A stretch of 64,000 nt of DNA from an uncultured Planctomycetaceae bacterium (GTDB taxonomy: Bacteria > Planctomycetota > Planctomycetia > Planctomycetales > Planctomycetaceae): NCBI GenBank assembly GCA_963815195.1, contig CAWFGE010000019.1, positions 192,001-256,000 of the forward strand, in the 5' to 3' direction. The position numbers and the translations under genes were made by a program. The notes under the pieces are model-generated. The model did not search any database, was not told where the DNA came from, and saw nothing but the letters and a program-made list of their open reading frames with translations. Each line of letters starts with the position of its first letter. Position 1 is the stretch's first letter. Shown here piece by piece: positions 28,880 through 33,414 of the stretch.

Positions 28880-29956
28880 ATGCCCCACACCAACACCACG
28901 ACCGTGATCATCGGCCAAGGCCTGGCGGGGACGGTCTTGGCCTGGCAGCTTCTGTGGCGGGGGGAATCGCTCGTGATGATTGACGACGGTTCCTTCCCCA
29001 CCGCGTCCCGGATCGCGGCCGGCCTGGTGACGCCCATCACCGGGCAGCGGCTCGTGCCCAGTTGGCGGTTCGCCGAGTTCTGGCCCGCCGCGCTAGGCTT
29101 TTATCGCCGGGTCGAGCAGGAAACCGGCCGATCGTTCTTCCGAGAAGTGCCGATGCTGCGGCTCTTCGGAAGCGAACAGGAACGCCTGCGGTTTTCGCAA
29201 TCACCATCCGCCGATTCCCCGGTTGCTGTCAAATATCCAGAACCACTCGTGGACGAGACCGCCTTCAAAAATGCATGGGGCGGATTTGAGATGCTCGGCG
29301 GACAGTTGGATGTCTGCGGGTTCCTGGAAACTTCGCGATCCTGGTTTGAAGACCGCGGGCTGTTGCGAACGAGTCGTGTCAATCTCCCCGCGGACCTGGA
29401 GTTGCAAATCGAATCCGTCGCCTTTTCCAAGTGGTACCTTGAAGCGAAGCGGGTGGTTTTTTGCGAAGGGTTTGCCGGTCGGAGAAATCCTTGGTTCCAG
29501 CGGGTGCCGTTTGATGCGGCCAAGGGGGAGATTCTGACGATCCGCGTGCCGGGCCTCGAGGAACAGCGGATCATCCACTGCGGGATTTGGCTGGCTCCGT
29601 TGGGAGAGGAACTGTTCCGCGCGGGAGCGACGTATGATCGGGAGAACCTGAACAACTTGCCCACAGAAAGCGGACGCGAGGAAATCTGCCGGCAGCTTCA
29701 AACCTTATTGCGATTGCCGTTTGAAGTCGTCGATCATCACGCGGCCGTGCGTCCCGTTGTGGTCGGCCGGCATCCGGTGATCGGATTGCATCCCCAATTT
29801 CCGCCGTTGGGTTATTGCAACGGCCTCGGTTCCAAAGGGGCACTCCAGGCTCCGTTCGTTGCGGAGCAGTTCGCGAGGTTTCTCCAAGGCGCGGGCGAGA
29901 TTGAAGACATCCTGAACCTCCGGCAGCGGTTTGGCGATATGTTATGGAACGATTGA
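28880..29956 (+). CDS. FAD-dependent oxidoreductase, DAO/DadA family (MnmC oxidase-like)
   Basis: IIGQGLAG dinucleotide motif, ASRIAAGLVTP, KGEIL, GATY, GLGSKG. Confidence 0.85.
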   Translation: MPHTNTTTVIIGQGLAGTVLAWQLLWRGESLVMIDDGSFPTASRIAAGLVTPITGQRLVPSWRFAEFWPAALGFYRRVEQETGRSFFREVPMLRLFGSEQERLRFSQSPSADSPVAVKYPEPLVDETAFKNAWGGFEMLGGQLDVCGFLETSRSWFEDRGLLRTSRVNLPADLELQIESVAFSKWYLEAKRVVFCEGFAGRRNPWFQRVPFDAAKGEILTIRVPGLEEQRIIHCGIWLAPLGEELFRAGATYDRENLNNLPTESGREEICRQLQTLLRLPFEVVDHHAAVRPVVVGRHPVIGLHPQFPPLGYCNGLGSKGALQAPFVAEQFARFLQGAGEIEDILNLRQRFGDMLWND

Positions 29957-30510
29957 CTGAGAAAGCCCATCAAATCGTGCGCTCTCGTGTGAGGCCGGGC
30001 GATGTGGCGATCGATGCCACCGCGGGGAACGGATACGACACCTTGTTCCTCAGCGAAGCCGTGGGAGACGCGGGGCTTGTGTTTGCCTTCGATGTGCAGC
30101 CGGCGGCTCTTGAGCAAACCGCCGCGCGGTTGGAAAATGCCGGCCGAAGCAACGTGCTGCTCGTGCCGCACAATCACGCGGAGTTGGCGAGTCACATCCC
30201 CGCCGAGCACCACGGCCAAATCGCCGCGGTGATGTTCAACCTGGGCTACTTGCCGGGATCCGACAAATCGTTCCACACGAAACCGGAAACCACAGGGTGG
30301 GCCATCCTGGGCGCGTTGCCTTGGCTCCGCGCGGACGGCGTTTTGACCGTGCTCGCCTACACGGGGCATCCCGGTGGGCTGGAGGAAGCCGCCGCCGTGC
30401 ACCAATTGCTGCAAAGCCTTTCTGGAGAGGAATTTACAGTCGAAACTCATGTCCCGGACCGGCCGTCGGCTCCACAACTGTTCGTGGTCGCCCGGCGGCA
30501 TAATCCGTAG
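29944..30510 (+). CDS. mnmM: SAM-dependent methyltransferase, YtqB/MnmM family
   Basis: DATAGNGYDTLFL, AFDVQ, FNLGYLPGSDK and YTGHPGG closely follow the YtqB/MnmM motifs. Confidence 0.8.
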   Translation: MERLTEKAHQIVRSRVRPGDVAIDATAGNGYDTLFLSEAVGDAGLVFAFDVQPAALEQTAARLENAGRSNVLLVPHNHAELASHIPAEHHGQIAAVMFNLGYLPGSDKSFHTKPETTGWAILGALPWLRADGVLTVLAYTGHPGGLEEAAAVHQLLQSLSGEEFTVETHVPDRPSAPQLFVVARRHNP

Positions 30511-30632: not shown

Positions 30633-30730
30633 AGGACCGAAGGTCCGGGCCTATGTCAGCCCAGGGCAAGCGCAGCGCCGCCCTGGGTTATGGATGATAA
30701 ATGAAACGCAAGCCCAGCGGGGCGGCCCTA
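30633..30730 (+). repeat. REP-like composite repeat, family C (left copy)
   Basis: AGGACCGAAGGTCC..CTATGTCAGCCCAGGGC...GCCCTGGG...GGGGCGGCCCTA; inverted relative to the copies at 30786 and 46504. Confidence 0.8.
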
Positions 30731-30785
30731 GAGGGCACGCGCAGGGGCAGCTTCAATCCCACGCACGCATTACGTATCTTCGGTT

Positions 30786-30846
30786 TAGGACCGCCCCTTT
30801 GGGCCTATTGCATTTTGTTTGTTCCTGGTCCCCAGGGCTGCGCCCT
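30786..30846 (-). repeat. Family C repeat, first part, interrupted by IS110
   Basis: TAGGACCGCCCC...CCCAGGGCTGCGCCCT; continues at 32501. Confidence 0.85.
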
Positions 30847-30860
30847 TATAGGATTTGCTG

Positions 30861-31160
30861 AGGGATGGATCGGCCGCGGGAGAGGGCGGGGGACGCAAGT
30901 CTCTCCCCACGGACTCTTCCGCGCCGGAGCCGATCCAGCGCCGTTTTTTTCCTGTTTTTCCAGCCCCAACTTTGAGAGGATCAAAATCAGGCACGCGTCG
31001 CCCCGCTACGAATCGTGCGCCCCATCGCTTCAACGATTGAGCCCAGACTTTCGAGCGGGACGATGCTCTTGGGAACCAACGAATCACTCCAGATGATGAC
31101 GCCAAAACGTCTCGGACTATAAGGTTTTCGCCCGCTCCCAAGATCGCGTGCCCTTTTTGA
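30861..31160 (+). ncRNA. Predicted IS110 bridge RNA (5' hairpin + target-binding loop + donor-binding loop)
   Basis: Guides TGCGCCC (31016-31022) and AGCCCAG (31040-31046) match the target; CAGATG (31090-31095) and CTATAAG (31117-31123) match the donor junction; each pair sits in an internal loop closed by stems. Ends are approximate. Confidence 0.85.
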
Positions 31161-31192
31161 TTGTGTTTCACTTTAACAGGAGACGATCCCCC

Positions 31193-32474
31193 ATGCACTC
31201 GAATTTGCTCGACCCCAATGCCTGTGTGCTGATCGGCCTCGATTGGGCCGACCGCGAACATGCCGTCTGCCGGCTGCTTCCCGACGGCGGAACCGAACAC
31301 CGGCAACTCGAACACACGCCCGAAGCGATTGCCGACTGGCTCGCCGGCCTGCGGAAGCAATTCCCCGGTCGCCCGATTCGGATCGCGTTGGAGCAAAGCT
31401 GCGGCGCGCTGATGAGCGCTCTGCCGTTTCGCCGACCTGGAACTCGAACTGTATCCCATCAATCCCAAGCAGCTGGCCCGCTATCGGGACGCGATTCATC
31501 CTTCGGGAGCGAAATCCGATCTAGACGATGCGCAGCTCTTGGCCCGCTTTCTGCAAAACCATCAGGAGCAACTCCTCCCGTTCGTGGCGGACGATCCCGA
31601 AACCCGCCGCCTGGCCGAGTTGTCCGAACTTCGCCGCAAGCTGGTCGATGACCGCAAAACCCTTGTGCAGAAGCTCGAAGGCACGCTCAAGCTGTATTTT
31701 CCGCAACTGCTCGAATGGTGTGCCGGGAAGAGTCGCCAACCCCTGTTGCTCGCCGTGCTTCGCCGCTGGCCGAGCTTGGGCGATCTTAAGCGGGCTCATC
31801 CCAAAACGCTTCGCACGTTCCTCGCCGAGCATGGCCTGCGGAACCCCGACCAGCAAACCGAGTGGATCGACAACGTCCGCCCCGCCACCCCGTTGACCGA
31901 GGATGCCAGTTTGATCGAACCCCGCGCGATGTACGCCCAAAGTCTCGGCCGGCAAATCGAGGAACTGAACGAGGCCATTGCCAAATTCGAGAAGCAACTG
32001 GACGAGGCGACCGCCGCGCATCCCGACCACGAACTGTTCCGCTCGCTGCCCGGTGCCGGCGACGTCCTCACGCCGCGACTCATCGTGGCGATGGGCTCCG
32101 ACCGGGACCGCTACCAAGACGCCGGGGACGTGCAATCCAAAAGCGGCATCGCCCCGATCACCAAGCAAAGCGGGAAGACCCGGCTCGTGTTGTCGCGAAT
32201 CGCCTGCCCCAAATTTCTCCGGCAGACATTCCACGAGTTCGCCGACCAGGCCCGCCGCTGGAGCGATTGGTCCCGAGCGTTCTATCAAATGAAACGCGCG
32301 GCCGGCATGAGCCACCACGCCGCGGTCCGCGCCTTGGCCTTCAAATGGATTCGCATCATCTTTCGGATGTGGCAAACCGGCACCCCTTACTCGGAAATGA
32401 AGTACCAGGAACAACTCACAATCAGAAACAGCCCCGTCTGGAATTTATTGGAAACAACAACAGAAACCACCTGA
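31193..32474 (+). CDS. IS110-family DEDD recombinase/transposase; one extra base near 31427
   Basis: RBS AGGAG; IGLDWA, ALEQ, KSDLDDA (DEDD tetrad); SLPGAG and GIAPITKQSGK with the conserved serine. Deleting one T in GTTTCGCC gives a 426-aa ORF. Confidence 0.93.
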
Positions 32475-32500
32475 AACCCACTTGAAAAAACCTCAGATGT

Positions 32501-32532
32501 CTGGGCTGACATAGGGCCGGGCCTTTGGCCCT
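32501..32532 (-). repeat. Family C repeat, second part, after IS110
   Basis: CTGGGCTGACATAGGGCCGGGCCTTTGGCCCT is a near reverse complement of 30633-30664. Confidence 0.85.
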
Positions 32533-32559
32533 CAGAATCCTCTCGTTCATTTGTCGCCC

Positions 32560-33414
32560 ATGAACCCTTTAGCTTCACAACAGAATTCCGTGATCGATCA
32601 GGAACCGCCCTACTCTCCCGCCTGGCATCAAATGTTGGAACGCATGCTGGGAGCGGCGGCGTGCCGGCAGTTGGGGTTTTATTCCATCCCCTCCGATATG
32701 CTGCTCTCGGTGGTGATTCCCATCTACAACGAGGAAAAGACGCTGCGGGAAATCGTCGAGCGGGTGCGGGCGGTGCCGATCCGCAAGGAGATCGTGCTGG
32801 TCGATGATTGCAGCCAGGACAAATCCCGCGAACTGATGCAGCAAATCGCCGCCGATGTCGCCGACCAGGCCGACGAGATGAACCACATCGTCACCGCCTT
32901 TCACGAAGTCAACCGCGGCAAGGGGGCGGCCCTCCGGACGGGCTTTGAACATGTCGGCGGCGATGTGGTGATTATTCAAGACGCCGACTTGGAATACGAT
33001 CCCTCCGAATTTCCGCGGCTGCTTCAGCCCATCATCGAGAACAAAGCCGACGTGGTTTACGGCAGCCGATTTCTGGGCGACCAGCCGCACCGGGTGCTGT
33101 ATTTCTGGCATTACCTGGGCAACAAGGTTTTAACGACGTTGTCCAACTGCTTCACCAATCTGAACCTGACGGACATGGAAACCTGCTACAAAGTTTTCCG
33201 CCGGCAGGTGATCGACGATGTCACGCCCCGGCTCAAGCAGAACCGCTTCGGCTTCGAACCGGAAATCACCGCCCGCATCGCCCGCCGGCGGTTCCGGGTT
33301 TTCGAAATGTCCGTCAGCTATTCCGGGCGGACTTACGAGCAGGGCAAGAAGATCGGCTGGCGGGACGGCGTCAAAGCCCTGTGGTGCATCATCCGCTACG
33401 GCGTTGCGGATTGA
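32560..33414 (+). CDS. Glycosyltransferase family 2 (DPM1-like)
   Basis: [44 protein letters not shown]. Confidence 0.93.

Follow-up and report, generated by a model that had tools for sequence, protein, structure and literature searches.

The window, that is the whole stretch of 64,000 nucleotides of planctomycete DNA analysed here, harbours an IS110-group element at positions 30845-32502, with CT on either end, which interrupts the right arm of a two-armed repeat. Repeat and element together occupy 30633-32532. They lie between a putative rRNA methylase gene upstream (29944-30510, PF06962) and a family 2 glycosyltransferase gene downstream (32551-33414, PF00535), both of which are syntenic in the congeneric species G001. 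Read along the sequence, the order is CCCAGGGCTGCGCC (30831-30844), a CT core (30845-30846), an insert of 1.65 kb, a second CT core (32501-32502) and GGGCTGACATAG. All features mapped in this region are on the forward strand, except the interior of the repeat, to which no strand is assigned.

The repeat, whose empty family members we aligned, is 244 bp long without the insert and has three hairpins in each arm. The left arm (30633-30730) contains a terminal hairpin (30633-30646), a middle hairpin (30660-30687) and an inner hairpin starting at 30712. After a variable interior (30731-30785), the left part of the right arm (30786-30844) carries an inner hairpin together with the 5' portion of the target hairpin, ending with the left target TGCGCC (30839-30844). 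Beyond the element, the remainder of the right arm (32503-32532) comprises the right target GGGCT, a linker and the terminal hairpin; joined to 30831-30846, it forms a unit resembling the Rfam family Acido-Lenti-1. The termini of the whole repeat, 30633-30664 and 32501-32532, are inverted arms of 32 nt that are 88% complementary.

The element itself opens with a left non-coding end (30847-31192), which starts with the right donor arm TATAG and contains a predicted -10 box, TAGGAT (30849-30854). The recombinase gene follows (31193-32474), and a short right end (32475-32500) contains a predicted -35 box, TTGAAA (32482-32487), and the left donor arm CTCAGATGT.

Copies of the element and their recombinase

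A genome-wide search of the source genome G000 (8.87 Mb, 94.6% complete) found five copies of the element, inserted at the same CT in five different copies of the repeat, and no further IS110 match. The five matches all start at the position equivalent to 30633 and stop at that equivalent to 32532, and the IS-bearing repeat copies are all located between open frames. A first-pass annotation of the window had placed an IS110 precisely inside a palindrome at a CT core; its coordinates and motifs are right, and both junctions, with CT at either end, are common to the five copies. It had also proposed that excision restores a sequence within a repeat whose inverted partner lies at 30633-30730. The restored hairpin does occur unoccupied, with a single CT, at C12:900523 in G000 and is found empty twice in G001.

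Only two copies, at C13:491390 and C18:86128, encode an intact recombinase, of 427 aa. In the window copy, the frame is disrupted by a 2-nt deletion near 31415 that the first-pass annotation does not mention; of the remaining broken copies, one is affected by a 1-nt insertion behind codon 371 and the other by a 1-nt and a 300-nt deletion. The protein comprises the DEDD_Tnp_IS110 and Transposase_20 domains (PF01548 and PF02371), i.e. an N-terminal DEDD RuvC domain and a C-terminal serine domain, and it scores 171.8 bits against NF033542, for a cut-off of 140. Residues D17, E67, D110, D113 and S327 of the intact copy align with the catalytic residues of IS621. As is usual in the IS110 group, a short core is common to target and donor, and there is no target duplication beyond the CT. 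By each feature that sequence can test, the element is thus of the IS110 group. In the IS1111 group, the RNA follows the gene, and the elements have inverted repeats in sub-terminal position. We rejected membership of the latter group, as the right end is only 26 nt long, the predicted RNA lies upstream of the gene and an inverted repeat of the IS ends is absent among the 25 longest pairs.

The bodies of the four non-window copies are 0-1 substitution apart, and they differ from the window copy by 4-6. In contrast, the repeat halves that precede the IS copies agree at no more than 156-183 columns out of about 200-215, and they are bordered by different genes. Even the two copies denoted C13a and C18, which have another 106-108 bp in common on each side at 97-98% identity, differ at 15 of 198 repeat columns versus 1 of 1661 IS bases. 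Since near-identical IS bodies reside in diverged repeat halves, we infer that the five insertions are independent of one another and younger than the repeats.

Two of the IS-bearing repeats, at C13:490741-492838 and C18:85475-87577, lie in turn inside a larger repeat whose hairpin arms are different and extend over about 108 bp per side, which makes up a three-layer element. Empty copies of this outer repeat with similar edges exist.

We also looked at contigs of four DNA sequencing runs; among the runs listed as containing the sequence, none was of RNA. In run X1, which may be the source sample, one contig spans 30831-32514 with an intact frame, at a depth of 14.8 versus 2.8-4.3 for single-copy flanks. 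A contig of run X2, from another study, runs across the right junction into the same arm. The contigs of these four runs cannot tell if the frameshift of the window copy is an assembly error. Neither a circle joint nor an empty-site joint was seen in them at the IS junctions, which does not imply absence, and the G000 assembly holds no copy of the circle junction.

The host repeat and Acido-Lenti-1

The repeat family has about 58 loci in G000 (63 clusters, five of which are split by the IS). We saw no tnpA fragment in the interior of the window copy; 5'-end fragments of such a gene, e.g. QSVARVLIHVAFSAK, are present in three other G000 copies and in one G001 copy. Among 19 contigs found with the target pattern, the metagenome contig L099 encodes an intact Y1 transposase of 151 aa that carries the motif Y..Q..HH and is located between arms of this type, which include the exact IS target. 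The motif Y---Q--HH defines subclass 1.2 of the TnpA-Y1 transposases (Quentin et al. 2018, PMC6006769), whose proteins are short, as in L099. Judging from these arms and gene remnants, the repeat is likely to be a doublet without a gene, made of the three-hairpin ends that belong to a subclass 1.2 gene. In the passages of that study that deal with subclass 1.2, its members are described as generally devoid of typical terminal structures and mostly found in Cyanobacteria and Bacteroidetes, unlike the three-hairpin ends in Planctomycetota reported here. The intact parent gene was not found in G000, where the L099 protein has no match at E <= 1e-30.

The first-pass annotation regarded the repeat as REP-like and compared its targeting at a CT core with that of IS621. 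Repeat targeting stands, whereas the identity as a classical REP does not. The repeat does have the dispersed palindromic-doublet character of REP/REPIN sequences, with an intergenic placement known for the five IS-bearing copies. REPINs, RAYTs and TIRtrons, as presented by Di Nocera et al. (2013, PMC3733652), likewise include Y1 genes bordered by hairpin ends in inverted orientation, as well as doublets that lack the gene. However, the GTAG/CGTC tag is absent from the aligned repeat ends, the linked protein is of the subclass 1.2 type rather than a class 2 TnpA-REP, and there is no Y1 gene beside the repeat in G000. These features set the repeat apart from classical REPs of the GTAG type. We also rejected a local RAYT partner, as each of the six Y1 matches in G000 is separated by at least 8.9 kb from the nearest member of the repeat family.

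The right arm aligns over all 46 positions of the Rfam model RF01687 (Acido-Lenti-1). Among the 150 of 1904 candidates that were scored in G000, five empty right arms pass the cut-off of 37 bits (37.1-44.7 bits), as do the G001 repeat copies (39.3 and 39.4 bits). The empty exact site scores 34.8 bits and the window copy, whose arm is split by the IS, 17-18 bits. We then considered 30 loci of L099-like genes drawn from 301 genomes of the phylum. RF01687 matches over the cut-off are present at 14 of these 30 loci, and 20 have matches at E <= 0.05 and 10 have none, counts that show a family linkage rather than a frequency because the query was taken from a motif-flanked gene. The matches mostly face outward and lie within about 120 nt of the gene ends. 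None of 20 control loci passes (17 other Y1 genes and three orthologues of the window locus, under stricter gathering filters). It is likely, from these alignments, that the outer part of the three-hairpin end is what Rfam catalogues as the Acido-Lenti-1 RNA.

Acido-Lenti-1 was listed as a small RNA of unknown function (Weinberg et al. 2010, PMC2864571), and a 2026 preprint still presents it as a family of unknown function (10.64898/2026.10.21.760802). Those accounts differ from the present case, in which it would form the DNA end of a Y1 transposase unit and serve IS110 elements as a target. In the literature passages that deal with both, no link between Acido-Lenti-1 and a transposase was found. 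The locus would thereby connect three layers of mobile DNA, namely a Y1 transposase, its gene-less doublets, for which Rfam has an orphan family, and a recombinase that is guided to these doublets by RNA.

In G000 as a whole, there are 46 Acido-Lenti-1 matches, many of them in outward-pointing pairs about 150 bp apart that belong to other repeat subfamilies, and one match, at C23:554829-555044, adjoins a tnpA fragment. In G001 (L080:988-1066), an IS200-type gene has a match to a group II intron domain nearby. Rfam matches to miRNA and SRP families, below their own cut-offs, were set aside as hairpin noise.

The predicted bridge RNA

For the 346-nt left end, the predicted fold has a stem-loop on the 5' side and two more that are interrupted by internal loops (z = -1.8 and -2.5). 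A bridge RNA at 30858-31152, the ends of which are approximate, would consist of this 5' stem-loop followed by a target-binding and a donor-binding stem-loop. Four guides that match target and donor sit in the two internal loops, as predicted from the DNA sequence. The left target guide CGTGCGCCC (31014-31022) pairs through its seven core-proximal bases with TGCGCC and the core C; its first two, distal bases mismatch the targets in all five copies. The right target guide AGCCCAG (31040-31046) is the reverse complement of CT-GGGCT. In the donor loop, the left guide CTC-C-AGATG (31087-31095) matches the right end CTCAGATG with one bulged base, and the right guide CTATAAG (31117-31123) is the reverse complement of CT-TATAG.

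Related elements argue for this prediction. We searched for the bridge-RNA scaffold in 52 sequences, i.e. 50 related loci, the G001 copy and the window, and recovered it in 35, the 17 without it being mostly truncated loci. Across relatives, donor guides and donor ends are nearly constant, and the target guides are variable. For the covariation analysis, we left out the G001 copy, removed one unparsed row, merged identical guides and corrected one guide by hand. For the left guide, agreement with its own flank amounts to 6.17 of 8 positions, versus 3.52 after shuffling (23 guides); for the right guide, it is 4.38 of 5, versus 1.77 (21 guides). In both cases, none of 10,000 shuffles did as well, although the sequences are kin and the shuffle test, like the Fisher tests below, takes related sequences as independent. 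Three relatives have a poor fit for a single guide, with 1 of 5 matches in L023, 2 of 5 in L026 and 4 of 8 in L028. In the consensus fold of 18 aligned RNAs of relatives, 22 of 33 predicted pairs are changed on both sides. Furthermore, joining the IS ends creates a predicted promoter that matches the consensus, with the -35/-10 pair TTGAAA-17-TAGGAT. Among elements for which both ends are available, such a pair is present in 21 of 23 reconstructed circle junctions versus 0 of 23 integrated left junctions. In seven relatives from Vicinamibacterales and other Acidobacteriota (L020, L025, L032, L034, L036, L039 and L048), the core is CC, and the right donor guide is changed to match.

IS621 of Escherichia coli is a close model for these features. 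The parts of its description considered here (Durrant et al. 2024, PMC11208160; Hiraizumi et al. 2024, PMC11208158) report the same DEDD RuvC and serine domains, a CT core, a junction promoter, a left-end bridge RNA with target and donor loops, and insertion in intergenic palindromic repeats, RNA and promoter being predictions in our case. With 326 aa versus 427 aa, the two recombinases are only weakly similar (E 1.4e-7). Donor and target sequences are different, and the right target match extends 5 bases beyond the core in our element. IS621 is described with 144 insertion sites in REPs, whereas the sites of the present element are scarce and nearly all filled, and its target is not a REP of the GTAG type. 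ISPpu10 of Pseudomonas putida, in the preprint passages that describe it (10.64898/2026.03.19.712850), also targets a REP hairpin at a CT core and tolerates distal left-guide mismatches with a strict match near the core, as here; ISPpu9 is named beside it as a close system. In our element, the core is part of the 3' strand of the target stem, versus just downstream of the stem in ISPpu10.

By analogy with IS621, the element would circularise at the CT, and its joined ends would form the promoter that drives the bridge RNA. The target loop would then read TGCGCC-CT-GGGCT and the donor loop CTCAGATGT-CT-TATAG, and the RuvC/serine recombinase, with the five residues listed above, would swap strands at the CT. 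The host repeat would supply intergenic sites, of which only those with exact guide matches would be used. The broken window copy might still be moved in trans by the intact copies. We consider it very probable that the five copies occupy one CT of the right-arm hairpin because the predicted left-end bridge RNA pairs with this site and with the joined ends, the repeat likely being a gene-less doublet of the TnpA-Y1 1.2 type. The mechanism is the established one; what is new is the host group, the class of target and the near-saturation of the exact sites. In the open-access literature, we found no paper on this IS110 clade, on its target or on bridge RNAs of planctomycete IS110 elements.

Landing sites, the sister species and competing explanations

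Our census of G000 comprises 93 arm-like sites, a few of which are duplicate or decayed. Only six match the guides over all 13 target bases. Five are filled, and the sixth is the lone arm at C12:900523. None of the 87 inexact sites is filled, nor any of the 15 among them with a single mismatch. Filled exact sites stand out against all inexact sites (Fisher p 1e-7) and against those with one mismatch (3e-4), values that are overstated because the sites are kin. In the entire G000 genome, the exact 13-mer target occurs seven times, five filled and two empty, versus 0.24 expected under a 5th-order Markov model. The second empty occurrence, at C13:264250, is within an open frame of 462 codons and is devoid of the hairpin partner arm CCCAGGGC. 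Thus, target sites for this element are few and nearly all filled, contrary to the many intergenic landing sites expected in the first-pass annotation. That annotation correctly noted two unoccupied near-cognate CT sites in the middle hairpin of the left arm, GCCGCC-CT-GGGTT on the forward strand and CTTGCC-CT-GGGCT on the reverse strand. As landing sites for this element, they do not hold up, since left-arm sites have at least three mismatches to the guides in 42 of 43 cases and none is occupied by it; one of the two is the predicted target of a relative, L012. The genome offers a natural test set for bridge-RNA specificity, with one guide pair facing six exact sites, 15 with one mismatch and dozens of worse ones, and only the exact sites being used among harmless, similarly placed repeats. 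Several G000 right arms have lost the target hairpin; its halves are nearly direct repeats of each other, and slippage between them would yield such a loss. In others, the stem is kept by a paired change from G-C to A-T that abolishes the guide match.

The sister species presents a different situation. Its orthologous locus is devoid of the IS and of almost the entire repeat. Only a 15-nt palindrome is present (L073:2215-2229), equal to the terminal hairpin of the repeat, which could be either what a deletion between two terminal hairpins left or the seed of the doublet. Two exact sites within G001 repeats are empty. The sole copy of the element detected in this draft genome, in which collapsed copies may be missing, is 94% identical, with the same four guides, and is inserted outside the repeat in unrelated sequence. 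The expectation that all copies would map to the same site is therefore borne out by all five in G000 and contradicted once, outside that genome. The G001 copy links a truncated IS66 to a unique gene region (L062, C25:389415-393692). On its left, IS66 is cut at a native CT, where two other IS66 copies continue differently. The right flank, CT-TATGG, resembles the right donor arm and can pair with the right donor guide if one G-U wobble is allowed, a fit noticed post hoc and expected at 0.2% of G000 CT sites. Its two flanks derive from different places, and no empty site for this copy was found. It likely results from a donor-half-match insertion accompanied by an adjacent deletion, by analogy with the RD-only events reported for IS621 in a preprint (10.64898/2026.08.31.748434).

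This copy, without either target flank, and the events reported for IS621 would also fit a looser mode of insertion, with half- or near-match events being common and the clean pattern in G000 being what selection against insertions at other places has left. We regard this as unlikely. The 87 inexact sites likewise lie in harmless, presumably intergenic repeats, none is filled, and selection would not have cleared those. As for a composite movement, in which repeat and IS travel or duplicate together via the repeat ends and the shared position reflects one old insertion, it would account for five matches with the same outer limits, for the additional sequence common to the C13a and C18 copies, and for the G001 locus devoid of the whole unit. 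The divergence pattern largely refutes it: four IS bodies at most one substitution apart reside in repeats that differ at 15 to about 57 columns, the C13a and C18 copies show the same imbalance, and the guides fit the site and covary with the flanks of relatives. We deem such a history highly improbable.

A further proposal adds to the bridge-RNA reading rather than replacing it. The guides might provide the address and the target hairpin a necessary second gate, as for ISPpu10, for which a stem-loop effect was shown in the cited preprint. All five insertions are in the hairpin, and a gate would explain why the exact 13-mer at C13:264250, without its partner arm, is empty. However, selection against disrupting the open frame there explains its emptiness equally well, the core is inside the 3' stem arm, unlike in ISPpu10, and many rebuilt targets of relatives have no hairpin signal. 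A clear local signal (z <= -2.7) was obtained for only 4 of 21 rebuilt targets, and for 5 of 16 in a second set; with such mixed local folds, we rejected a hairpin requirement common to the whole clade. A gate specific to this element seems to us conceivable but doubtful.

Guide-directed choice of the site, our preferred reading, also has a counterpart among the closest relatives. In a tree of 28 rows, the element groups with the G001 copy, L011, L012, L013 and L014 (support 99/97). Four of the six subclade members use arms of this type, at three different hairpin positions. L013 and L014 target arms that score above the RF01687 cut-off and are inserted in their inner hairpin. The guides of L012 read GCCGCC-CT-GGGTY, i.e. 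the unoccupied left-arm site of the window repeat. Three of the four right ends of L012 enter such arms, one of them beside a subclass 1.2 gene at a locus with no RF01687 match at E <= 0.05; the left ends are unseen. L011 is inserted in a different repeat (41 matches), which has no RF01687 match. It is tempting to speculate that the present element, L012, L013 and L014 form a specialised parasite of Acido-Lenti-1/TnpA-1.2 end repeats, which has kept one donor and rewritten its target loop at least three times for different hairpins. In G000, all five exact two-armed sites are filled, and targets would be running out as the repeat drifts. We rate the chances of this scenario as slightly below even. 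If true, it would provide a natural record of what drives guide reprogramming. The clade offers about 20 natural guide sets on one donor, useful for the engineering of bridge recombinases, and it includes one likely natural donor-half-match rearrangement, that of G001.

Flanks are repeated in the own genome of four of the six relatives tested (12, 69, 41 and 8 matches, including self), but four of the six were picked for the palindromic look of their flanks, and the repeat of L043 may be coding. For L013 and L035, the flanks had no match other than themselves in the respective genome (2.8 Mb in the case of L013). In a further genome, G002, in which no recombinase match was found, the segment C24:151874-151942 matches the IS left end at 75% and is possibly a remnant of a related element.
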